Source: Haliea sp. (GTDB lineage Bacteria; Pseudomonadota; Gammaproteobacteria; Pseudomonadales; Halieaceae). Taken from it: a DNA stretch of 64,000 nucleotides. The first letter of the stretch is position 1; every line of letters begins with the position of its first letter. Shown here piece after piece: positions 575 through 16,057 of the stretch. Below the pieces are notes generated by a model. That model did not search any database, was not told the origin of the DNA, and worked only from the letters and a program-made list of their open reading frames with translations. Position numbers and translations under genes: made by a program. Location of the stretch: positions 21,979 to 85,978 of the forward strand of contig NZ_JAVKCQ010000019.1 of NCBI RefSeq assembly GCF_040222615.1. Reading direction: 5' to 3'.

Positions 575-1390
575 CTAGGCGTCTGTGGATAAGTCTGTCT
601 TTTCGGGTTCGCTGTCTCCTTCATCGGGTTGGGTTGTCGTCGGTTTTCTTCGCTTGCCACTGGCCAGACTGTGACGGAACCGCCAGGACTCATTGCCGGT
701 CTCCACGATGTGGCAGTGGTGGGTGAGCCGGTCGAGCAATGCTGTTGTCATCTTGGCATCACCGAACACGCTGCCCCATTCGGCAAAGCCAAGATTGGTA
801 GTGATCATCACGCTGGTGCGCTCGTACAGTTTCGATAGCAAATGGAACAGCAGGGCTCCACCGGCCTGGCTAAACGGCAGGTAGCCCAACTCATCGAGGA
901 TCACCAGATCAACATGGGTCAGACGGTATGCCAGCTGACCCTGCTTGCCAGCAGCCTTTTCCTGCTCCAGGGTGTTGACCAGTTCTACCGTAGAGAGGAA
1001 CCGCACACGGCGCTGATGGCGCTGGATCGCCTCCACGCCGATGGCGGTGGCCAGATGAGTCTTGCCGGTTCCTGGGCCGCCAATCAGCACCGCGTTCTGT
1101 GCGCTGCTCATGAACTCGCCACCGTGCAGCCGTCGGATCAGCACCTCATCGACCCGTGCCTGGGTAAAATCGAAGCCCGCCAGGTCGCGATGTACCGGGA
1201 ACCGCGCCGCCTTCATCTGATAGGCCAGGGATTTTACCTCTCGCTCCGCCGATTCCGCGGCCAGCAGTACCTGCAACACCTGCTCCGCATCCATTGCGTG
1301 GCTGCGCGCCTTCGCCATCAGTTCCGGCAAGGTCTGCGCCATGCCATGGAGTTTTAGCGACTTCAGCTGTGAGATCAGGTCATTCGACAT
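575..1390 (-). CDS. istB: IS21 helper AAA+ ATPase IstB
   Basis: Walker [12 protein letters not shown], Walker [15 protein letters not shown]...D.....A.LDRL.H motif. Start overlaps the istA stop. Confidence 0.95.
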
Positions 1391-2903
1391 GGTTCACCTC
1401 CGCCGGCACCGGGCTGCGCAGATGGTCGTAACGTTGCACATTGGCCAGGGGTTCCTCACTGAGCGTCAGCGAGGTTTCCACGGGCGTTTTCGGGGGCAGC
1501 GGTGATTGCAGCCGGGCCAGCACGTTCAGCACATGGTCGCCGCTGATGTTGCCCGACTCCAGTGCCAGCTCCACCGCGACCAGTACCGGCTCCAGCCCTT
1601 CGGAGACGACCGCAGCGAGGACCTGAGCCATGACCCGGTCGCCGCCCTCCTGGCGCAACAGGTACCGCTGCAGGGTCCTGAGGCGCTCAGGCATCTCGGT
1701 GAACGGTGCGCCGTTGCGTAGCGCGCCGGGCTTGCGTTGCAGCACGCCGACATAGTGTTGCCAGTCATAGACCGTCTGGTAGCGTTCAAAGCAGCGCCGA
1801 TGCCGCGCCACCTCCTCACCGTCGGCCACCAGGACCAGTTCCCAGGGATACACCCGCAGGCTGATGACCTGGTGTGCCAGCTCTGCTGGCACACTGTAGC
1901 GACTGCGCTGGTAATGGATCAGGGCCGTGGCGGAGACTCGCACCGGCTGTTCAATATAGCCGTCAAACGGCTGCGGGTTGGGCATCAGATGCGGCTGCTC
2001 ATCCTCCAGCACCGAGAGAAGGGTCAAGTCGGGGCAGTCCGGGTGACGCATGTCCACCCACGCCGCACGGCACTCACTGGCCAGCCAGTCATTCAGCACT
2101 TCCAGTGACGGCCAATGGCGAGCGTTGGCATTGGCCCACAGTTGCCGCCGACGGTCCTGCACGTTCTTCTCCACGACGCCCTTCTCCCAGCCAGCGGCCC
2201 GGTTACAGAACTCCGGCTCAAACAGGTAGTGGCCGGTCATCGCCTGGAAACGCGCGTTGACGGTGCGCTCCTTGCCGCGCCCGACTTTGTCCACCGCTGT
2301 CTTCATGTTGTCGTAGATGCCGCGCCGGGGTATGCCGCCAAAGGCAGCGAAGGCTCGGGCATGGGCATCAAACAACATCTCATGCGTCTGCAGCGGGTAG
2401 GCCACCACCAGGAAGGCGCGACTGTGGGCCAGCTTGATATGGGCCGCCTCCAGTCGACGTCGAATGCCGCCGATCATGGCGTACTCGCAGCTCCAGTCGA
2501 ACTGGAAGGCCTCACCAGGGGCAAACCTCAGGGGGATGAAGGCTTTGCGGGCCGGCGCGGCACCGCCGGCTTCGCGCCATTGCCTGACAAAGATGGCCAC
2601 CCGGGCGTAGCCACCGGGATAACCCTGCGCCTGCAGCAACTGGAACAATACCTAAGCGGTGCTCCGGTCACGCTTGGGGCTGTGACTCTCGCTTCGCAGC
2701 CAGGTCGCCAGCTGTTCTTTGTAAGGATCCAGGATGCTGGGAGCGGTGCGGCGAGGATACGCGGGTTCGCGCATCTCGCTCTGACGCAGCCAGTGCCTGA
2801 GGGTGTTGCGGGATAAACCGGTCTGCCGCGCAATCTCGCGCAGGGGGACCTTGTCGCGGAAATACATCCGCCGGATCTTGGCTAACATGCCCACTGTGAT
2901 CAC
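1380..2903 (-). pseudogene. istA: IS21 transposase IstA interrupted by an in-frame TAG at 2652-2654
   Basis: N-terminal HTH ORF (2652-2903) and DDE/RNase H ORF (1380-2648; FQFDW, YDNMKT, KGVVE) are in the same frame, separated by ...ACC GCT TAG GTA TTG TTC.... Confidence 0.9.
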
Positions 2904-5836: not shown

Positions 5837-7291
5837 CTAGAAGACCCCGCGCAAGCCGAAGGTCACCAGGTTGGCGCTGGTGCCGGAAAGCCCTGCGGTA
5901 CTGTTGTACTGCACGAAGGCAAACAGGTTGTTGGCAAACTGTGCGGACAGCCCCAGCGTCAGCTCGAAGAAGTTCTCGTCCGGGTCATCGGTGGGCGAGC
6001 GGAATTGTATGCTGCTCCCCGGCACGGCGAAGGCGTAGCTGTAGTCAAGCGTTTGCGCTTCATTGTCAAACTCGTGCCGCCATTCGGCCCCGGCATAGGG
6101 CAGCAGGACTCCAAAATCGGTGCTGCTGGCGTGGCGGAGCATCACGCCGAAAATGGATTGCACCGACTGGGTGTCCTGGCTGCCGTAGCGCAGGGCAAGG
6201 CCGCCGCTGCCGCCAGTTTCCCTCTCCTGGTAGCCATCGATGTCGATATCCAGGTAGTCGAAGCCGGCATACACATCTACCGTAGTTGCGCCACTGCCGA
6301 ATACGTAGCCGGCGGTGGCCTGGGCGCCCAGCTGGGAGCTGTCGGTGCTGGCATCGAAACTGCGGTCGACCACCAGGCCCGTCGCCGTGCCCGTCGCGCC
6401 CGGTGCGGCGGTAATCTGGGCCTTGCGCAGCATGTCAAAATCGTTCTGGCCGTAACTCAGGATGCCGTTGACGTAGCTGTTTTCGGTTCCGTAGACGAAA
6501 AATCCGGACAGGCTGTAGCCATCGCTCTCAATCTTGCCCCCCGCTGAGCTGGTTGCGAAGCTGCTGCCGGTGGTGCGGTCCAGGTCGACATCATAGCTGT
6601 TGTAACCCAGCGCCAGTCCCGCGGCGAGGCCGTTGTCGAAGGCGTAGTCGGCACCCAGGGTGATGCCCCAAGAATCGAAGTCGTAGCCGCCCTCGTTGTC
6701 GGTTTCATCGCGGTCGCCCCAGCCGACGGCGCCGTTGCTGAACCAGGCCCAACCGGTGTCTGCGTCCCGTTCGTCTCCGGCGCCAGTGCCTCCGGCGAGG
6801 GCTGCCGGGCTGCCGGCCAGTGCTTCGCTGAGATCCTGCCCCTGAAAATTGACCGCCACGGGAGAAATACTGGAGCGGGCGCCACGGCGAATGGCATCCA
6901 TACGCGCACCCAGATTCGCGAACTGTCGGTTGCTGCTTTCCGTTGCCAGGCGGGATTGGCTGGATGCCTCTTCGCCGGAAAACTGGCGGATGGCGTTGTA
7001 GGTTTCACCCGGGCTGGAGAAGTTGTAGTTGTTGGCGGTGGCGCCCAGTACGGTGCCTGACATCTCCCGGCAGCGATTGAACAGATCGGCTCGCTCCCCA
7101 GCCTGCGGGCCACTGGCGCCCAGCTCCAGGCAAGTGGCCCTGATCGCGTCGCCGGCGTTGACGATGAACTGTGGCGCTCCCTGGTCGGCCAGTGCCTGGC
7201 CCACATCGGTCGCAGGGCCCTGTTGGGCGTGGCTGGTGGCGGCGCAGAAGGCACTGCCAAACACGAATCCATAGCTGGTTATTCTGTTCAT
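5837..7291 (-). CDS. Autotransporter-type outer-membrane beta-barrel protein with a very short passenger
   Basis: Sec signal (..ATSHA|QQ), about 130-aa passenger with a Cys pair, helical linker, alternating beta-strand pattern (WGITLGADY, GAEWRHEF), C-terminal Phe (FGLRGVF). Confidence 0.85.
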   Translation of the reverse strand: MNRITSYGFVFGSAFCAATSHAQQGPATDVGQALADQGAPQFIVNAGDAIRATCLELGASGPQAGERADLFNRCREMSGTVLGATANNYNFSSPGETYNAIRQFSGEEASSQSRLATESSNRQFANLGARMDAIRRGARSSISPVAVNFQGQDLSEALAGSPAALAGGTGAGDERDADTGWAWFSNGAVGWGDRDETDNEGGYDFDSWGITLGADYAFDNGLAAGLALGYNSYDVDLDRTTGSSFATSSAGGKIESDGYSLSGFFVYGTENSYVNGILSYGQNDFDMLRKAQITAAPGATGTATGLVVDRSFDASTDSSQLGAQATAGYVFGSGATTVDVYAGFDYLDIDIDGYQERETGGSGGLALRYGSQDTQSVQSIFGVMLRHASSTDFGVLLPYAGAEWRHEFDNEAQTLDYSYAFAVPGSSIQFRSPTDDPDENFFELTLGLSAQFANNLFAFVQYNSTAGLSGTSANLVTFGLRGVF

Positions 7292-7558
7292 TGTTCGCCC
7301 TTCCCCGTGAATGCAACAGTTGCCCGGACGAATGGTTTGGTTGGCAATGCCAGAATGCGGTAAAGCCAGCCATTGACGAGCACTGTTCGTTATTAATTGA
7401 GTTGTTCCAAAGAGTCTACTCCTGTTTGCGAGCAGCGCAAGTCGAGGACAGGTATTCCCTGCCCTGCGCAGCGAGCTTTCGCTGCTGGTGAAGCTGGGCT
7501 AGTATAAAAGTCTGCCTGTGTTGTCGGGCGCTACAGGCGGGCCCATGGTGCGAGACAG

Positions 7559-9037
7559 ATGCCCGTGAATAAAACGTACGAGGTGACAGTCCAGGGCGAT
7601 CTGCCCGGTGACGCCACCGAGCTTGATCCATTACAGTCGCAGGCACCTGCTCCCGGGATGGTGCTGCGGGATCGATTTGTGCTCCAGCGCATGCTCGGCG
7701 CCGGCGGCATGAGCAAGGTTTTCCTGGCGATTGACCGCGAACTTGAGGACTCCAATCCCTTCGTTGCGATCAAGGTGCTCGGCGACAGCTTCAAGGATCA
7801 TCCCCAGGCGCTCACCTCACTGCGCCGCGAAGTCAATAACTCCCGTCAGCTCAACCATCCCAATATTGTCGGCGTCTATCACTTCGACCGTCATGACGAC
7901 ATTGTCTTCATGGTCATGGAATACATGCGTGGAGAACCGCTGGATGAATTCCTGCGCAAGCATCGGGAGGGTCTGCCCTGGGACCAGGCCTGGCACATCA
8001 TCCGCGGTTGCGGTGAAGCGCTGGCGTATATGCACGACCACGGGGTGGTGCACTCGGACTTCAAACCGGGGAACGTTTTTCTCACCGAGGACAACGAGGT
8101 CAAGGTGCTGGATCTGGGCATCGCACGCACCCTGGACGAAGCGCTGGCGACCCGCAACACCACCCGTTTCGATGGCGATGCGCTGCTGGCACTCACACCA
8201 CAATACGCCAGTTGTGAGATGTTCGAGGGACAGGCGCCCGATAGACGGGACGACATCTATGCCCTGGGCTGCGTGGCCTACCTGCTGCTCACGGGGCGCC
8301 ACCCCTTCGACGGCGCACGCGCAATTGATGCCCGCAGCAACGAGCTGGTTGCAGAGCGGCCCCCTGGCCTGCGCCAGGCGCAATGGCAGGCACTGCTGAA
8401 GAGCCTCGCCCATCGGCGGCGTGAACGCACAGCCCATGCCCAGGAATTTCTCGCCAGCTTCGGCCCCGTTATCCGCTCCCGCAGCGCGGCCCCGTGGATT
8501 GCAGTGACCGCCCTGCTGCTGGTTTCCGGAGTCGCAGTCGGAAGCTGGCAGGTGTATCGTGCTTCTCCGGAACAACGTTTTATCGATGAGATGCTGGTGC
8601 AATACCGGGACACTGGCGATTCATCCGTCGGTGCGGAACAGGTGGCGCTGTGGCTTGAACAGGGGGCCCAGAATGTCGCGATGGCCAGCGCGGCGTTTGC
8701 CAACGACGAGTTTGATCGCGGTGGCTACTTCCTCCACGGCAGCACCAGTTCGGCGAAATGGGTGTATGACCTGGTATTGCGTCAGGCTCCCGACGAAGCC
8801 AGCAAGCGCGCCGCTGCCAGCGGCATGTTGCAGTTGGCGGCCGCTTATGAAGAGCCGGTACAGAGGCTCGCCGAAATGGAGCGCCCGCGCGAGGCGCTGG
8901 AGTTTGCCTGTCGCGGTGTTGCCATCAATGCCCACAATCCGGTACTGGGGGGGCTGTTGCCCGCCCTGGCCGAGAGGGTGCCCAACCCGGGCGTCATCGC
9001 CGGCTGTAAAGACTTGCCCGAGGGTATTTTGCGCTGA
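7559..9037 (+). CDS. Hanks-type Ser/Thr protein kinase, membrane-anchored
   Basis: LGAGGMSKV, AIKVL, HPNIV, VMEY, HSDFKPGNV, DLGIA, YASCE, DIYALG. Single TM (PWIAVTALLLVSGVAVG) followed by a helical C-terminal domain. Confidence 0.93.
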   Translation: MPVNKTYEVTVQGDLPGDATELDPLQSQAPAPGMVLRDRFVLQRMLGAGGMSKVFLAIDRELEDSNPFVAIKVLGDSFKDHPQALTSLRREVNNSRQLNHPNIVGVYHFDRHDDIVFMVMEYMRGEPLDEFLRKHREGLPWDQAWHIIRGCGEALAYMHDHGVVHSDFKPGNVFLTEDNEVKVLDLGIARTLDEALATRNTTRFDGDALLALTPQYASCEMFEGQAPDRRDDIYALGCVAYLLLTGRHPFDGARAIDARSNELVAERPPGLRQAQWQALLKSLAHRRRERTAHAQEFLASFGPVIRSRSAAPWIAVTALLLVSGVAVGSWQVYRASPEQRFIDEMLVQYRDTGDSSVGAEQVALWLEQGAQNVAMASAAFANDEFDRGGYFLHGSTSSAKWVYDLVLRQAPDEASKRAAASGMLQLAAAYEEPVQRLAEMERPREALEFACRGVAINAHNPVLGGLLPALAERVPNPGVIAGCKDLPEGILR

Positions 9038-9092
9038 TTCGCCAGCCCCCGGCCCGACCATTGCGCTTCAGTACCAGGAGGGAACGAGCTTT

Positions 9093-11522
9093 ATGAAAAC
9101 CATCCAGAGTTGTTTATTGGCGGGCCTGATTACGGTAGCTGTCAGTGGTAATGCCCAGGCACCCGAAGGCGATCTCGCCAGCCGCGCGGCGGAGCTGAAG
9201 GAATTCGACATCGTCCCTTGCCTGCTGCCGCCCCGGGTGCGACGCCTGGGTGGCATCGTCTACCCCGAGCGGCGCCAGCTGACCCATGTCACCGCGAAGG
9301 TGTGTGAACTCCGGGGCGGTGAGTATACGGCCTATGACCGGGCAACACCGGAAGCCTCGGTCGCGTTTTTCCTGCCGCTCGCTGAGGAGGGGGACCCCGC
9401 CGCACAAACGCGTCTGGGCGAGGTCTACCAGTACCTGTTCGCAGAGCCCCGCTATAACGACGCCATGGTCTGGTACCAGCGAGCGGCTGAACAGGACGAT
9501 GTTACCGCCCTGCGCCGGCTCGCCCACCTGCACGAAAACGGTCTCGGGGTGGAGCGCGACCCGCTGCTGGCAACCAACCTGTGGCGGCAGGCTACCGGGA
9601 TGGGGGACGCGCTGGTGCTGGCCTCGGACGCGGAGGCTGCCAGAACGGCGGCGGAGCAGCGCGTGGAGCAGTTGACCGGCCAGTTGCGCACCCGCAATGC
9701 CGAGGCCGATGCCCTGCGCCTGGAGCTGGCGGACGCCCAGGCCGGGCTCGCGGAGCGGCGCAATGCCCTGCTCGGTGCCTCCGGGGAGGTGGCTGTGCTG
9801 CGCCAGCAACTCGCCCGGGCCCGCGAGCAGCAAGCACCGGATGACAGTGGCCGGGTGGCGGCGCTGGAGCGTGACCTGCGAGAAAAACAGCAGCTGCTTG
9901 AGGATCAGCAGTTCCAGCTGGAAAGTCTGGAAGCGACTCTCGATGCCAGGCAGGCAACCCTGGTGGCCAGTGTGCGCCAGGTAGAGCTGGAAAACCGGCG
10001 CCTGCAGGGTGAGCTTGAGCGAGTATCCGCCATGTCGGAGCTGGAGCTGGCAGAAGCCCGCAACGCGCTGTCCTCGCGTGACCAGGAGGTGGCGGAGCTG
10101 CAGCGCCAGCGCGCCGGGCTGGCTGCGGAAGCGGAAGCCGGGCAGCAGGCGCTCGCCGCCATGGATGCCCAGCTTGCGGCGCTGCGGAATGCGGCCGACA
10201 GCAGCGAGCGGGCCCGGGAGGAGGCCCGCCAGCTGACCGCCGAGCGGCAGCGCCAGGCGGAAGCGCTCGCCGCCAGTCGCGAGCAGATAGCGACATTGCA
10301 GGGCGCCCTGGCCGGCAAGCAGTCGGAGGCAGAGTCCCTGCGGGACGAGCTGGCGACAGCGCTCGATGAACGGCAGAGGGCGGAGGCGAAACTGGCGCAG
10401 ACCGAGTCGGCCCTGGTGCAGTTGCGCCAGCAGGAGTCTGCCGCCAGCGTGGAGAGAGCAAAGCTGCAGAACGCCGTGGCGCTGGCCCGCAGTGAGCGCG
10501 ACCAGCTCGCGGCGGCTGTGGCCGCTGCCGGTAGCGGGGAATCCAGCCGCAGCACGGAGCTGGCGCAGCTGCGCCGGCAACTGGACGAGCGCGACACCCT
10601 GCTCGCCCGGCAGGAATCCAGACTGGCCGAGGTGGACGCGGAGGCCAAGCGTTACCAGCGCGAAGTCGCCCAGCTGCGGGAGCAATGGAGCCTGCAGGTC
10701 GCGACCCGCAGCGTGCTGGAACCCCTGCCGGATACCTCCCGCATCCGTATCCCGGGAGATATCAAGCTGGGCAAGTTTTATGCCCTGGTCATCGGCAACA
10801 ACAACTATCAGCATCTGCGCCAGCTCACGTTCGCCCACAATGATGCCAGTGCCGTACACGAGGTGTTGACCCAGCGTTACCGGTTCCAGTCAGAGCTGCT
10901 GCTGGACGCCACCCGTGGCGACATCTTCCGCCGGGTGGACGCGCTGAAGGAGACTCTCAAGCCAGAGGATTCCCTGCTGATCTACTACGCCGGGCACGGC
11001 TCGGAGGATGGCACTGACAGTTACTGGATGGGTGTCGACGCGACCTCGGCCTCACCCGGCGCCCAGGAAATGTACGGCGTCTCCAGCAGTGCCCTGGCGC
11101 GCTGGCTGGCGCTGTTGCCCGCCAACCATGTGCTGGTGATCGCTGACTCCTGTTATTCGGGGCGCGGCATAGTCACTTCCGGAGGCATCAAGCTGCGGCA
11201 GGACGAAATCGAACAGAACCTGAAGTTTTACCTGCAGAACCGCGCCCGCACGGTACTGACCTCCGGTGGCGTCGTGCCGGTGCCGGACGGCGGTGCGGGT
11301 AACCATTCGGTGTTTACCAAGGCCCTGGTGGGTTTGCTCAACCAGAACACGGGTGTCCTGTTCGACAATGACCTCTATGCCCACATGAAGGAACGCGTGC
11401 GGCATGGCACGGAGTCCAACATGGCCGTTCCGGAGCCGATTTTCGGCCGGATCGAGATCAATAACGGTCACGGCTCCGGGCAGTTTGCCTTCCTGCACCC
11501 GAACCTCGTGGGGCGGCGTTAG
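9093..11522 (+). CDS. Exported Sel1-repeat / coiled-coil / peptidase C14 (caspase-like) protein
   Basis: RBS AGGAGG before ATG 9093, signal-like MKTIQSCLLAGLITVAVSGNA|Q, two Sel1 repeats, long heptad coiled coil, C14 domain with YALVIGNNNY, YYAGHG and ADSCYSG (His/Cys dyad). Confidence 0.88.
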   Translation: MKTIQSCLLAGLITVAVSGNAQAPEGDLASRAAELKEFDIVPCLLPPRVRRLGGIVYPERRQLTHVTAKVCELRGGEYTAYDRATPEASVAFFLPLAEEGDPAAQTRLGEVYQYLFAEPRYNDAMVWYQRAAEQDDVTALRRLAHLHENGLGVERDPLLATNLWRQATGMGDALVLASDAEAARTAAEQRVEQLTGQLRTRNAEADALRLELADAQAGLAERRNALLGASGEVAVLRQQLARAREQQAPDDSGRVAALERDLREKQQLLEDQQFQLESLEATLDARQATLVASVRQVELENRRLQGELERVSAMSELELAEARNALSSRDQEVAELQRQRAGLAAEAEAGQQALAAMDAQLAALRNAADSSERAREEARQLTAERQRQAEALAASREQIATLQGALAGKQSEAESLRDELATALDERQRAEAKLAQTESALVQLRQQESAASVERAKLQNAVALARSERDQLAAAVAAAGSGESSRSTELAQLRRQLDERDTLLARQESRLAEVDAEAKRYQREVAQLREQWSLQVATRSVLEPLPDTSRIRIPGDIKLGKFYALVIGNNNYQHLRQLTFAHNDASAVHEVLTQRYRFQSELLLDATRGDIFRRVDALKETLKPEDSLLIYYAGHGSEDGTDSYWMGVDATSASPGAQEMYGVSSSALARWLALLPANHVLVIADSCYSGRGIVTSGGIKLRQDEIEQNLKFYLQNRARTVLTSGGVVPVPDGGAGNHSVFTKALVGLLNQNTGVLFDNDLYAHMKERVRHGTESNMAVPEPIFGRIEINNGHGSGQFAFLHPNLVGRR

Positions 11523-12126: not shown

Positions 12127-13173
12127 TCAAACCGGCAGCATGACCTTCGCCGGCGCGCCGGCGACTTCCCGCACCAGTCGCGGGACCAGATAACCCGGCA
12201 GTGTCGCGCTGATCTCCCGGTGCAGTGCCCGGGCCCGCTCGGCGCTGACCTCGAAGTGCGCGGCACCCGTTACCCGGTCCAGGAGGTGCAGGTAGTAGGG
12301 CAGCGCACCGGCCTCGAACAGGCGCTCGCTGAGCCGGGACAGTGCAGTTGCGCTGTCGTTGATCCCGGACAGCAGCACCGCCTGGTTCAGCAGGGTCATG
12401 CCGTGTTGGCGGATCATGGCAAAGGCGCCCGCCACCTCGCTGTCAATCTCATTGCCATGGTTGCAGTGCACCACGATCACGGTTTTGAGCTGCGGGCTGG
12501 ACAGGGCGTCCAGCAGTTCCGGCGTGACCCGCTGCGGGATGACCACTGGCAGCCTGGTGTGCACGCGCAGTCGCCTGACATGGGGAATCGTGGCCAGCTG
12601 CGCTACCAGCTCTGCCAGCTGGGTATCGCCGGCAACGAGCGGGTCACCGCCGCTGAGGATCACTTCACTGATACTGGGGTCGCGCCTGATGTAGTCCAGC
12701 GCCGATGACCATTCGCTGCGGCTGTTCTGGTTGTCCGCGTAGGGAAAGTGGCGTCGGAAACAGTAGCGACAGTGAATGGCGCAGCTGCCGGTAACCAGCA
12801 GCAGCAGCCGTCCGCGATACTTGTGGATAATGCCGGGGTGCGGATTGGCCGCGCCGATTTCCCCGGTGGGGTCCGGGCCAAAGCCAGGCGCCGGCTGCAG
12901 CTCCCTGACCCCGGCCAGCACCTGCAGCAGCAGGGGGTCCCGGGGGTCGCCGGGAACCATGCGGGTGACAAAAGCCCTCGGTACCCGCAGGGGGAACTGC
13001 CGGGCGGCATCGTCGCTCCAGCCAAGTTGTTCCGGCTGCAGCTGCAGGGCCTGGCACAGCGCGGCCGGGGAGGTTACCAGGTCGCGCATGGCTGCGCGCC
13101 AACCCTGTTCCGGGTCCGCCGGGGCAGAGGCAATGGTGATTTGCGGCTTGTTAAGGCTGCGGATGGCGGTCAT
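12127..13173 (-). CDS. epmB: EF-P beta-lysylation protein EpmB (KamA-type lysine 2,3-aminomutase, radical SAM)
   Basis: FPLRVPRAF, DPLLLQVL, HKYRGRLLL, CAIHCRYCFRRHFPY, NQAVLL.GIND, PYYLHLLDRV.GAAHF. Short 348-aa form. Confidence 0.9.
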   Translation of the reverse strand: MTAIRSLNKPQITIASAPADPEQGWRAAMRDLVTSPAALCQALQLQPEQLGWSDDAARQFPLRVPRAFVTRMVPGDPRDPLLLQVLAGVRELQPAPGFGPDPTGEIGAANPHPGIIHKYRGRLLLLVTGSCAIHCRYCFRRHFPYADNQNSRSEWSSALDYIRRDPSISEVILSGGDPLVAGDTQLAELVAQLATIPHVRRLRVHTRLPVVIPQRVTPELLDALSSPQLKTVIVVHCNHGNEIDSEVAGAFAMIRQHGMTLLNQAVLLSGINDSATALSRLSERLFEAGALPYYLHLLDRVTGAAHFEVSAERARALHREISATLPGYLVPRLVREVAGAPAKVMLPV

Positions 13174-13308
13174 GGCTGGCGGTACAGGCCCGGGAGTTGT
13201 TGCCGCCGGTCGCGGCGTGCAGTCGGATAGTGCTCGAACATCAGTGGCGGGTTCCAGTCTTGGGGGCCCCGGCTGGCCTGCAGCTGTAATGCCGGTGCGC
13301 CGGGCGTG

Positions 13309-14592
13309 TCAGCCCAGGCGATCGCGAAGACTGTAGAATAGCATGCCCGCCACGAGTCCGGGCCAGCGCAACAGGGTGCCGCCGGGGAACTGGTGGGAGG
13401 GTACCCCCGCCATGATATCGAAGCGCTCGGCGCTGCCGCTGATGACCTCTGCCAGCAGCTTGCCGGCGAGGGTGGCGATGGGCACACCGTGGCCGGAATA
13501 GCCGTGGGCGTAGAATACCCGCGACGACAGGCGCCCAAAGTCCGGCATCCGGTTCATGGTGATGGCCAGCGTGCCGCCCCAGCCATAGTCGATGCGGGTG
13601 TTGGCCAGCTCGGGATAGATGCGCAGCATGTACTTGCGGACGAAACCCTTGATGTCGGCTGGAAAGCGACGGGTGTAGGACTCGCCGCCGCCAAACAGCA
13701 GGCGGTTGTCGGCGGACAGCTTCCAGTAGTTGACCACGAACAGGGTGTCGGTCATCGAGGTGTCGTCGCGGATCAGCTGCCGCGCCAGCGCCTCGGGCAG
13801 TGGTTCCGTAGCCAGCATGTAGTTGTTGATCGGCATGATTCTGCCGGCGGTGCGCGGTTCCAGCTTTTCCAGGTAGCCGTTGCAGGCTACCACCAGGTAA
13901 TCGCAGGTCACGGCGCCGTTACCGGTCTTGACGGTGACCTTGTCGCCCTCGCGGTAGCCGGTCACCCGGCTGCCCTCGTGCAGTTGTGCGCCCAGGTCCC
14001 GCGCCGCGCGCGCCAGCCCGAGGGCATAGTTGAGCGGGTGCAGGTGGCGCGCGCCAGCGTCGAGCGAGGCGCCGTGGAATCCCTGGCCGGAGGTCATGGT
14101 CGCCAGTTCCGCGCGGTCGACATAGCGGATCTGGTCGTAGCCATAAACGCTGTTCAGCTGCTCGACCTCCTCCCTCAGCTCCCGGGCATCGCCGGCTTTT
14201 GACGCCACGTGCAGATTGCCCTGCTTCAGCTCACAATCGATCCGGTGGCTGGCAATCAGTTCGCAAACAGTGTCCACGGCCTCCAGGCCGAGTTGCCAGA
14301 GCGCCTGCGCATGCTCCAGTCCCACCCACTTTTCCAGTTGCTGCTGGCCCGCACGCTGGCCGGTGCCAACGTGGCCGCCGTTGCGCCCGGACGCGCCCCA
14401 GCCGACCCTGTTTGCTTCCAGCAGGACGACGCTGTAGCCGCGCTGGCGCAGGTGGATGGCCGTGGAGAGCCCGGTGTAGCCGCCCCCCACAATGCAGACG
14501 TCAGCCTTGCTGGTGCCGGCCAGCGCCGGGAACTCCAGCTGCTGGTTGGCGGTGGCTGCGTACCAGGATTCGACGTGGGCTTGGTTTTCCAT
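13309..14592 (-). CDS. puuB: FAD-dependent oxidoreductase, gamma-glutamylputrescine oxidase-like (PuuB)
   Basis: SWYAATA N-terminus, GGGYTG, GASGRNGG, GYSGHGV. Divergent from a puuA-like gene. Start taken at MENQAH. Confidence 0.78.
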   Translation of the reverse strand: MENQAHVESWYAATANQQLEFPALAGTSKADVCIVGGGYTGLSTAIHLRQRGYSVVLLEANRVGWGASGRNGGHVGTGQRAGQQQLEKWVGLEHAQALWQLGLEAVDTVCELIASHRIDCELKQGNLHVASKAGDARELREEVEQLNSVYGYDQIRYVDRAELATMTSGQGFHGASLDAGARHLHPLNYALGLARAARDLGAQLHEGSRVTGYREGDKVTVKTGNGAVTCDYLVVACNGYLEKLEPRTAGRIMPINNYMLATEPLPEALARQLIRDDTSMTDTLFVVNYWKLSADNRLLFGGGESYTRRFPADIKGFVRKYMLRIYPELANTRIDYGWGGTLAITMNRMPDFGRLSSRVFYAHGYSGHGVPIATLAGKLLAEVISGSAERFDIMAGVPSHQFPGGTLLRWPGLVAGMLFYSLRDRLG

Positions 14593-14707
14593 GCGGGCAT
14601 TATACGGACGCGCTTGCCATCTGCTGCATAACACGTTAGGGGTAGCCCCCTTGCGGCCTGAATTGCACTGCTGCGATACTGACTGCTTCCCGCGTTGTGG
14701 ATCCCGT

Positions 14708-16057
14708 ATGAAAACCGATACCCAAGCCATTCAAGAGTGGCTCAAGCAGCACAAGATTTCCGAAGTGGAGTGCCTGGTTCCCGATATGACGGGCAACGCC
14801 CGCGGCAAGTTCATCCCGGCGCACCAGTTTCTCAGCATGGGGGATCCGAAGCTGCCGGAAAGCATCATGATCCAGACGGTTACCGGGGAATACTCCGACG
14901 AGCACTGGGATTTCGTCGAGCCAACCGACGCCGACATGATCCTGAAGCCTGACCTGGATACCTTGCGCGTGGTGCCCTGGGCCCGCGAACCCACCGCCCA
15001 GATCATCCACGACTGTTACAAGATGAACGGGGAGCGGCACCCCCTGTCCACCCGCAACGTCCTGCGGCACATCCTTGATCTTTACGCGGCCGAGGGTTTG
15101 CAGCCGGTGGTGGCGCCGGAAGTGGAGTTTTACCTGGTGGCCAAGAACACCGACCCGGACTACGAGCTGATGCCGCCCAAGGGCCGCTCGGGTCGCCGGG
15201 AGTCGGCGCGGCTGTCCTACAGTATCGATGCGGTCGCCGAGTTCGAGGACTTCGTGGAGGACATGTACGACTACGCGGATGAGCAGAAGCTGCAGGTCGA
15301 CACCCTGATTCACGAGAACGGCGCCGCCCAGATGGAGATCAATTTCCTCCACGGCGATGCCATGAGCCTGGCCGACCAGGTCTTCGTGTTCAAGCGCACG
15401 GTGCGGGAGACCGCCCACAAGCACGGCATGTACGCCACCTTCATGGCCAAGCCCATGCAGCGCGAGCCCGGCAGCGCCATGCACATCCACCAGAGTGTGG
15501 TCCGGGTGGATACCGGCGAGAACATTTTCGCCGAAAAGGATGGCACCCACACGCCGGCCTTCCTGTCCTATATTGCCGGCCTGCAGCGCTACACGCCGGA
15601 GCTGATCAGCCTGTATGCGCCCAACGTGAATTCCTATCGTCGCCTGGCCCCGGAAATCTCCGCGCCCATCAATCTCAATTGGGGCATGGACAACCGCACG
15701 ACCGCGTTCCGGGTGCCCTGGGGGCCGCCGGAGGCTACCCGGGTGGAGAACCGCTTCCCCGGCGCTGACGCCAACCCCTACCTGGCCATTGCGGCCACCC
15801 TGGCCAGCGGCTATCTGGGCATGAAGCAGGGCTTGACGCCAACCCAGCCGCACCAGGGCACGGCCAATGAAGATGATGTCGAGGTGGCGCGAACGCTGGA
15901 GGAAGGGCTGCGCAACCTGCACAATACGCCCGAGCTGCAGGACATGATCGGCGACCTGTTCCTGCGCGCCTATGCGGCGGTGAAGCTGGACGAGTTCGAG
16001 GAGTTCAACCGCGTCATCAGTTCCTGGGAGCGCGAGCACCTGCTGCTGCAGGTCTAG
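14708..16057 (+). CDS. Glutamine synthetase-family protein, gamma-glutamylputrescine synthetase-like (PuuA/SpuI)
   Basis: VECLVPDMTGNARGK, APEVEFY, HENGAAQMEINF, FMAKP...PGSAMHIHQS, ENRFPGADANPY. Confidence 0.88.
   Translation: MKTDTQAIQEWLKQHKISEVECLVPDMTGNARGKFIPAHQFLSMGDPKLPESIMIQTVTGEYSDEHWDFVEPTDADMILKPDLDTLRVVPWAREPTAQIIHDCYKMNGERHPLSTRNVLRHILDLYAAEGLQPVVAPEVEFYLVAKNTDPDYELMPPKGRSGRRESARLSYSIDAVAEFEDFVEDMYDYADEQKLQVDTLIHENGAAQMEINFLHGDAMSLADQVFVFKRTVRETAHKHGMYATFMAKPMQREPGSAMHIHQSVVRVDTGENIFAEKDGTHTPAFLSYIAGLQRYTPELISLYAPNVNSYRRLAPEISAPINLNWGMDNRTTAFRVPWGPPEATRVENRFPGADANPYLAIAATLASGYLGMKQGLTPTQPHQGTANEDDVEVARTLEEGLRNLHNTPELQDMIGDLFLRAYAAVKLDEFEEFNRVISSWEREHLLLQV

Follow-up and report, generated by a model that had tools for sequence, protein, structure and literature searches.

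In the TagQRST-PpkA-PppA-Fha1 threonine phosphorylation pathway of the Pseudomonas aeruginosa H1 type VI secretion system (H1-T6SS; summarised in PMC13584744), envelope accessory proteins act on a single-pass Hanks-type Ser/Thr kinase, which is opposed by a PP2C phosphatase and read by an FHA protein; Serratia has a comparable RtkS-PpkA arrangement. A 2026 review of T6SS accessory factors names TagQRST and RtkS as the only inputs to PpkA and makes no mention of caspase, autotransporter or Sel1. Here, this pathway and other described relatives are compared with a locus of three genes (encoding an autotransporter, a Ser/Thr kinase and an exported caspase-like protein) in a 64,000-nucleotide stretch of DNA, the window, from Haliea sp. 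(Halieaceae, Gammaproteobacteria). The locus represents a widespread envelope module in a reduced form of three genes, and can be placed in a class of envelope input modules for Hanks kinase/PP2C/FHA pathways.

The gene set is well supported as a conserved module. By analogy with TagQRST-PpkA, there is about an even chance that it forms a trans-envelope sensory module feeding a kinase/PP2C/FHA switch. Its inputs (an autotransporter, a Sel1-stalk-caspase protein and an alpha/beta-hydrolase) are unrelated to TagQRST, a distinction drawn from annotated families and not from a search of the genome with Tag models. PpkA carries a periplasmic VWA domain, whereas the tail of the module kinase is a short helical domain. 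In addition, the Haliea genome has no T6SS, whereas the modules of several relatives lie beside T6SS genes.

To our knowledge, bacterial caspase homologues are numerous and no function is known for them apart from that of a few cytoplasmic defence proteases. Prokaryotic caspase homologues (orthocaspases and metacaspase-like proteins, MEROPS C14) share the C14 fold and the His/Cys dyad with the Haliea protein. The cytoplasmic caspases of conflict systems (EACC1-associated, gasdermin-activating and CHAT proteases) resemble it in catalytic fold; unlike them, it is exported, has envelope proteins as neighbours and has no NTPase, EACC1 or gasdermin partner. Classical type Va autotransporters (EstA, AaaA and NalP) share with the Haliea autotransporter a signal peptide, an N-terminal passenger, a long helix and a C-terminal 12-strand barrel, but the Haliea passenger is a helical domain of about 110 aa with two cysteines, it is followed by a 40-aa disordered spacer and its family is dedicated to a caspase partner. 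In the accessible portions of two papers, Sel1 is listed in a 2012 census among the commonest domains fused to bacterial caspase homologues (6% of sequences; PMC3501461) and pseudo-variants that lack the dyad are described among orthocaspases (PMC6426788); in these portions, neither paper describes an exported Sel1-stalk-caspase protein linked with an autotransporter and a kinase. Full-text literature searches found no paper describing this gene set. The component families and Sel1-caspase fusions are already known, and we could not find the gene set itself described.

Conservation of the gene set

An earlier note on this DNA, made from the sequence alone, had singled out the trio as a candidate trans-envelope signalling system and had named absence of synteny in other taxa as grounds for abandoning that idea. 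Domain and fold searches located all three parts where the note had placed them. The caspase protein, and then an aligned set of six full-length relatives, served as queries against species-representative genomes, and the caspase-protein family was found to have more than 500 relatives. Eighty loci were kept, with up to 10 kb of flank each, and their six-frame open reading frames (ORFs) were searched with hidden Markov models (HMMs). Neighbourhoods were counted in 40 non-redundant loci of other taxa, each flanked by 6 kb or more on either side; the HMMs were made from the same loci that they then searched, and the start positions of ORFs in relatives are approximations. Of the 40 loci, 36 encode an autotransporter of the same family, usually as the direct neighbour of the caspase gene (median gap 258 bp). 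A single-pass kinase is encoded in 29 loci, and kinase and autotransporter are both present in 28. None of 14 control loci that share the caspase domain alone has the autotransporter. The trio is syntenic in five Haliea genomes and in distant taxa, and the three families are kept together across Gammaproteobacteria and beyond: related loci occur in Steroidobacteraceae, Lysobacterales, Methylococcales, Thiodiazotropha, Nitrosomonas, Photobacterium, Motiliproteus, Alphaproteobacteria and Myxococcota. The synteny test set by the earlier note is clearly passed.

Among 121 Halieaceae genomes, 31 encode both the caspase and the barrel families, one the caspase alone, six the barrel alone and 83 neither. 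The barrel gene lies within 5 kb of 25 of the 41 caspase copies in this family. Counting the present genome, the caspase family is found in 32 of the 121 Halieaceae and in three of seven same-genus genomes sampled. The divergent orientation of the Haliea barrel gene, which is not in an operon with the other two, could be taken to mean that three unrelated envelope genes are adjacent by chance. This is extremely unlikely, as the synteny survey refutes it through co-conservation across orders and classes and co-occurrence at the genome level. The partners are also, by their sequences, specific rather than generic members of their families, because the module versions share a passenger domain, a kinase topology and tail, and a caspase-protein N-terminal module.

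Unbiased clustering of all ORFs recovered one more component in 28 of the 40 loci: a small lipoprotein (about 285 aa) that has the alpha/beta-hydrolase motif GYSGGG. NCBIfam and Pfam gave sub-threshold alpha/beta-hydrolase matches alone for this protein, and no function is assignable from them. A PP2C phosphatase is encoded in 15 of the 40 loci. The full module usually consists of the autotransporter, the exported and often lipidated Sel1-stalk-caspase protein, the hydrolase lipoprotein, the single-pass kinase and PP2C, frequently with an FHA protein. The trio of the earlier note is therefore present and co-conserved but incomplete, since the hydrolase lipoprotein and PP2C usually, and FHA often, belong to the set.

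Links to T6SS, PP2C and FHA genes

In Photobacterium sanctipauli, genes for TssK, TssL, TssM, TagF, PP2C, kinase, hydrolase, caspase and autotransporter follow one another in one direction. Genes for TssM or TssB/C adjoin the module in nine loci (L030, L037, L044, L045, L047, L053, L072, L101 and L103), and genes for FHA-domain proteins adjoin it in 12. In the Pseudomonas H1 cluster, tagQRST lies next to ppkA. Because the module of several relatives is found beside tssM-tagF-pppA-ppkA, it holds there the place of tagQRST next to ppkA. The Haliea genome (99.6% complete) has no TssC (PF05943) and no TssM or TssB/C by tblastn, and so no T6SS.

Four co-directional genes on another contig of the same genome (C161:2653-9791) encode a multihaem/LVIVD protein (1249 aa, with CxxCH and LVIVD repeats), a cytochrome c554-like protein, a PP2C and a 2xFHA protein. 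In Sediminihaliea and three related metagenome-assembled genomes (MAGs), these four genes are found immediately upstream of those for barrel, kinase and caspase. In Sediminihaliea (L040), PP2C and FHA genes form a single cluster with the barrel, kinase and caspase genes that follow them, and the PP2C directly upstream of the module is 59% identical to that of C161. As the C161 genes are contiguous with the module in Sediminihaliea, the window holds half of a split ancestral cluster, relative to which the Haliea barrel gene is inverted. With the kinase in the window and the PP2C and 2xFHA genes on C161, the functional link between them in Haliea is putative. A gene for a cytochrome c554-like protein is found with the module in 11 loci.

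The autotransporter

The features of the locus are collected in Table 1. The autotransporter has the conserved domain PF03797 (aa 184-463; E-value: 1.5e-46; 159.7 bits against a cut-off of 26) and a hydrophobic N-terminus with a signal peptide ending SHA|QQ. An AlphaFold2 (AF2) model built on 61 homologues has a mean predicted local distance difference test (pLDDT) score of 84 and a predicted template modelling (pTM) score of 0.81. In Foldseek searches this protein is most similar to EstA (6e-18), followed by AaaA (8.5e-17), NalP and EspP. It can be classified as a type Va autotransporter on sequence and model, and its passenger is predicted to be exposed at the surface.

Table 1. Positions of the genes and domains discussed (window coordinates unless a contig is named; aa, amino acids)
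Feature	Position	Strand	Basis or remark
Type Va autotransporter gene, 484 aa	5837..7291	-	Divergent from kinase operon; PF03797
Predicted 12-strand outer-membrane beta-barrel, aa 180-484 (AF2 strands aa 180-483)	5840..6754	-	PF03797, AF2, Foldseek
Minimal passenger, aa 29-135 (about 110 aa), five helices, Cys54/Cys74	6887..7207	-	AF2, pLDDT 81-95
Divergent intergenic region, 267 bp	7292..7558	.	Presumed promoters of both transcription units
Single-pass Hanks-type Ser/Thr kinase gene, 492 aa	7559..9037	+	Pkinase
Predicted extracytoplasmic C-terminal kinase tail, aa 333-492 (160 aa), Cys451/Cys483	8555..9034	+	Hydropathy, homology
Exported Sel1/stalk/caspase gene, 809 aa	9093..11522	+	Starts 55 nt after kinase stop
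N-terminal module: small beta domain (Cys43/Cys71) and Sel1 repeats	9174..9608	+	AF2, PF08238
Helical stalk, aa 177-538	9621..10706	+	AF2 helices aa 177-245, 249-368, 372-480, 487-538
C14 caspase-fold domain, His635/Cys687	10770..11519	+	PF00656
IS21-family element	575-2648	-	istB 575-1390, istA-like 1380-2648
Kinase paralogue, second module	13829-15526	-	Contig C232
Alpha/beta-hydrolase lipoprotein, second module	about 13042-13755	+	Contig C232

The passenger shows no recognisable enzymatic or adhesin fold. Its last helix is long (aa 107-135) and precedes the barrel; between this helix and the first barrel strand, the AF2 model has a disordered segment (aa 138-177), which is unusual for type Va. 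Cys54 and Cys74 are each conserved in at least 90% of 61 module-associated autotransporters, in which the two-Cys helical domain sits immediately before the barrel. This also holds for large relatives of up to 2054 aa, where Ig-like repeats (DUF11, Big_1 and ASH/HYDIN) are N-terminal of the two-Cys domain. The proposal that the barrel displays or secretes the protease is unsupported, as the barrel, with its 12 strands, is of the classical type Va and has a conserved passenger of its own.

A second autotransporter of the same family is encoded elsewhere in the genome (C58:528-3059); this protein of 843 aa has cadherin-like repeats before the two-Cys junction domain. Large barrels of this kind adjoin a short pseudo-caspase gene in other Halieaceae, and in this genome the two are on different contigs. 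In P. sanctipauli, a gene for a large Big_2/Ig-like exported protein (L072:13783-16563, + strand) follows the autotransporter gene and may represent an extra variable component of the module.

The kinase

The kinase has the Pkinase domain (E-value: 2.8e-41; 142 bits against a cut-off of 31.7). Its catalytic motifs are intact: GAGGMSKV at position 47, VAIK at 69 (Lys72), HSDFKPGN at 165 (non-RD) and DLG at 185. With all of these motifs in its sequence, the protein is assigned to the Hanks-type Ser/Thr kinases. A hydropathy scan predicts one transmembrane (TM) segment at about aa 309-331, before the tail listed in Table 1. Nearly all module kinases of relatives likewise have one TM segment and a tail of 93-170 aa, and the Haliea tail is homologous to those of nine of them (E-values from 1e-5 to 1e-11).

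DUF4384 was observed in eight of the 80 loci; in L098 (6960-8627, + strand) it is the periplasmic domain of the kinase, and in L006 (11405-12958, + strand) it belongs to a separate protein with PG_binding_1. These variants hint that periplasmic adaptors may be swappable.

The Sel1-stalk-caspase protein

The start of the third gene, previously put at 8559, is corrected to the ATG at 9093, which lies behind an AGGAGG Shine-Dalgarno sequence; the listed ORF (8559-11522) opens at a GTG. About half of the homologues of this protein have a lipobox, and the others, including that of Haliea, have an ordinary signal peptide. Export or membrane signals are present in all three proteins of the trio, which contradicts the possibility, raised in the earlier note, of a cytoplasmic protease. 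As that note observed, each protein also has a pair of cysteines in its exported part (54/74 in the autotransporter, 451/483 in the kinase tail and 43/71 in the caspase protein).

The N-terminal module has strands at aa 40-67 and helices at aa 86-168 in the AF2 model (pLDDT 78-98), and its Sel1 repeats match PF08238 (E-value: 2.3e-10). The repeats and the motif DCLLPxQxRKLG...CEIRGGEYxAYDRA are conserved in 79 caspase-protein sequences, in which Cys71 never varies and Cys43 reaches at least 90% conservation. Of the coiled coil of about 370 aa that had been proposed to follow this module, the long helical stretch (about 360 aa) was recovered and the continuous rod was not, since AF2 divides it into four helices of 69, 120, 109 and 52 aa with short breaks. 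A single continuous coiled coil of 55 nm was rejected on this basis. The stalk could either fold back into a bundle of about 18 nm or form a longer, oligomeric coiled coil, and in either form it could bridge much of the periplasm. It is plausible that the caspase protein is periplasm-spanning. The linker between Sel1 and caspase domains is at least 310 aa long in 79 of 81 relatives (median 385 aa); many relatives have an extra Ig-like domain, which the Haliea protein lacks.

The C-terminal domain matches Peptidase_C14 (PF00656; E-value: 1.2e-19; 71.3 bits against a cut-off of 21.4). The sequence confirms that the dyad is intact, with His635 in YYAGHG and Cys687 in DSCYSG, and both residues are invariant in 79 long-form homologues. 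The nearest solved structure by sequence is Yca1 (1e-7). The best fold match is MALT1 (4e-10), followed by Yca1 (to 6e-9), plant metacaspases and caspase-3/7. By fold and dyad the protein is placed in peptidase family C14, and it is predicted to be proteolytic; the invariance of the dyad in the long-form proteins implies that proteolysis matters. Its closeness to the paracaspase and metacaspases suggests, by analogy, a basic P1 residue. The best named match of this protein is the NCBIfam caspase_w_EACC1 (NF047832). Identity as an EACC1-associated caspase was rejected because the score (83.4 bits) is below the cut-off of 140 and no EACC1 or NTPase partners are found among the annotated neighbours.

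Clan CD includes transamidases (GPI8 and PorU), and there are Sel1 proteins that bind cell-wall enzymes. With these precedents, the Sel1-stalk-caspase protein and the hydrolase might have a structural role, tethering or remodelling the outer membrane and peptidoglycan at the barrel with the clan CD enzyme acting in the manner of a transpeptidase, while the kinase reports the state of the envelope. The constrained length of the stalk would fit this role, as would the peptidoglycan-binding neighbours of some loci (DUF4384 with PG_binding_1, OmpA-family proteins, and FHA+SLT proteins). Such neighbours are confined to a minority of loci, however (DUF4384, for example, to the eight mentioned above), and the module is accessory rather than core, being absent from 89 of the 121 Halieaceae genomes. 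We consider this role improbable.

Natural minimal variants of the module were also observed. The complete genomes of Methylotuvimicrobium and Methylomicrobium and an uncultured Methylococcaceae MAG (L041, L048 and L071) encode a full-length Sel1-stalk-caspase lipoprotein with no autotransporter or kinase within 10 kb; L041 and L048 retain the hydrolase lipoprotein gene beside the caspase gene. The barrel was considered as a substitute for the lipid anchor, as it is present in 18 of 18 loci with a non-lipidated caspase protein and in 20 of 24 with a lipidated one. These counts are suggestive, but the barrel accompanies most lipoprotein forms too, and the idea was not adopted.

The pseudo-caspase copy

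A second, paralogous module is encoded by another contig of the same genome (C232:11295-15526). Its Sel1 lipoprotein (553 aa) has the same N-terminal module and a spacer of just 110 aa, and its caspase-like domain reads YYAGYG and DSAFAG, with both catalytic residues lost. An ORF beside this module (C232:10173-11117) resembles a phage-type integrase by sequence.

Twenty short-form genes were fetched from Halieaceae, and the active-site region of 17 was alignable. Fifteen of the 17 have Ala, Ser or Thr in place of the Cys, and seven also have Tyr or Trp in place of the His. These pseudo-caspases are of a different lineage from the cyanobacterial Tyr/Ser variants. The Cys-less short form is conserved across Halieaceae genera, and in many of those genomes it adjoins a large autotransporter of the same family. 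Judging from these sequences, one lineage has a scaffold that functions without catalysis, while the long form strictly retains it. Because the Cys-less copies keep the same neighbours, a binding or signalling role fits better than bulk degradation.

The same observations bear on the possibility that the caspase protein and the autotransporter are a protease and its substrate. NalP processes neisserial autotransporters; similarly, the exported caspase could mature, trim or release the autotransporter passenger or other surface proteins, with the kinase merely co-regulating them. The autotransporter is the most constant and closest neighbour of the caspase gene, the passengers of relatives (the large Ig-like arrays, and the cadherin-like one of the Haliea paralogue) are typical surface cargo, and the dyad of the long form is invariant. 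Paracaspase and metacaspases cleave after Arg or Lys, and the helix before the barrel is Arg-rich (RMDAIRRGARS), which would suit a protease whose fold is nearest to theirs. Nevertheless, Cys-less pseudo-caspases are still found beside autotransporters in many Halieaceae, and a periplasmic or inner-leaflet protease would reach a surface passenger solely during transit. A protease-substrate pair would also leave unexplained the co-conserved kinase with its matching periplasmic tail, PP2C and FHA. It is rather unlikely to be the function of the module.

Proposed model

A trans-envelope relay is the reading best supported, because the parts lie at or beyond the inner membrane, the kinase is the sole cytoplasmic output and PP2C and FHA genes travel with the module. 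The contacts between the proteins, the direction of signalling and the choice between cleavage and binding by the caspase are inferred. The proposed model is as follows. The barrel in the outer membrane would show its small domain at the cell surface, as a sensor or an anchor; in relatives, Ig-like or cadherin-like arrays would lengthen this surface domain. The caspase protein would dock with its Sel1 end at the outer membrane, by way of the lipid anchor, the barrel or both, and the stalk would keep the caspase domain within reach of the periplasmic tail of the kinase. A change at the outer membrane would alter binding or cleavage by the caspase domain and so switch the kinase, which would phosphorylate the FHA protein, and PP2C would reset the switch. 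In T6SS-bearing relatives, where the kinase is in the position of PpkA, the output would be T6SS activation. In Haliea, which has no T6SS, it would presumably run through the PP2C and 2xFHA pair on C161. A relay from outer-membrane barrel through protease to inner-membrane kinase, first put forward in the earlier note, is thus still the best reading and is helped by the position of the relatives' module beside PpkA, TagF, PppA and TssM; its contacts remain conjectural.

Several observations weigh against this model. The autotransporter is tied to the caspase gene more tightly than the kinase is (90% against 72% of loci), so barrel and caspase could be a core pair with a job of their own and the kinase an add-on. 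Some caspase loci of Methylomicrobium and Methylotuvimicrobium have neither barrel nor kinase within 10 kb. The co-occurrence of caspase and barrel in the 121 Halieaceae (Fisher p = 1e-21) is not corrected for phylogeny and is inflated by shared ancestry. A 12-strand barrel has short periplasmic turns, which offer little surface for a periplasmic protein to bind. Finally, the conservation of the dyad in all 79 long-form sequences points to proteolysis, for which the model has no known substrate.

In its widest form, the proposal is that caspase and pseudo-caspase stalk proteins and a dedicated autotransporter constitute an undescribed and widespread trans-envelope switch that gates receptor-type Hanks kinases, serving as an alternative to TagQRST in triggering PpkA where a T6SS is present and eliciting another FHA-dependent response where it is not. 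This is tentative, and we hold it to be somewhat more doubtful than not. If it is correct, periplasmic bacterial caspase homologues would have a physiological role for the first time, and signalling by a caspase fold, through proximity or through cleavage, would occur outside the cytoplasm. Should PpkA be controlled by the T6SS-linked copies, these would add a third type of upstream firing trigger to TagQRST and RtkS. The module gives bacterial caspase homologues a testable context, with fixed partners, a predicted location and a kinase read-out, in a family whose more than 500 relatives include those of methanotrophs, sulfur-oxidising symbionts, Lysobacterales and marine heterotrophs. Regulation by caspases and pseudo-caspases is known in animals, and the active and catalytically dead copies in one Haliea genome are a parallel to it.

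Genomic context

The locus is present in five genomes labelled Haliea, with 81-97% protein identity and identical flanks. The trio is flanked by unrelated genes (an IS21 element, TauD, class II aldolase, TetR, SnoaL, a radical SAM enzyme and a DAO oxidoreductase) of metabolic character, with no defence-island genes near it, and the GC content of the locus is unremarkable. An empty site was sought in Haliea genomes without the module; these belong to a more divergent subclade whose gene order differs, so that gain and loss are not distinguishable.

This context bears on an envelope-level conflict system (abortive infection, defence or programmed death), in which attack on the barrel would cause the caspase to destroy envelope proteins while the kinase propagates the alarm. 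Known defence systems do include caspase-fold proteases and Hanks kinases, the distribution of the module is patchy both within the genus and within Halieaceae, the C232 copy lies beside the integrase-like ORF, and passengers vary greatly among relatives, as the targets of an arms race would. A search with PADLOC-DB 2.0 gave just generic kinase matches (mad6 and PD-T4-6) and a weak caspase match (3e-12), and a known anti-phage system was rejected as an identity for the locus. These matches are limited to generic catalytic domains, with none for the barrel or the hydrolase. The metabolic flanks, shared by the five Haliea genomes, and the GC content give no sign of a defence island, and the recurrence of the module within T6SS clusters indicates that an attack machine is regulated, rather than suicide. 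A conflict system is quite improbable here.

A scan for the sigma-70 consensus across the locus, including the 267-bp intergenic region, gave no match, and the scan for promoters and terminators across the locus was uninformative. The IS21-family element lies about 3 kb from the trio and is outside the conserved synteny.

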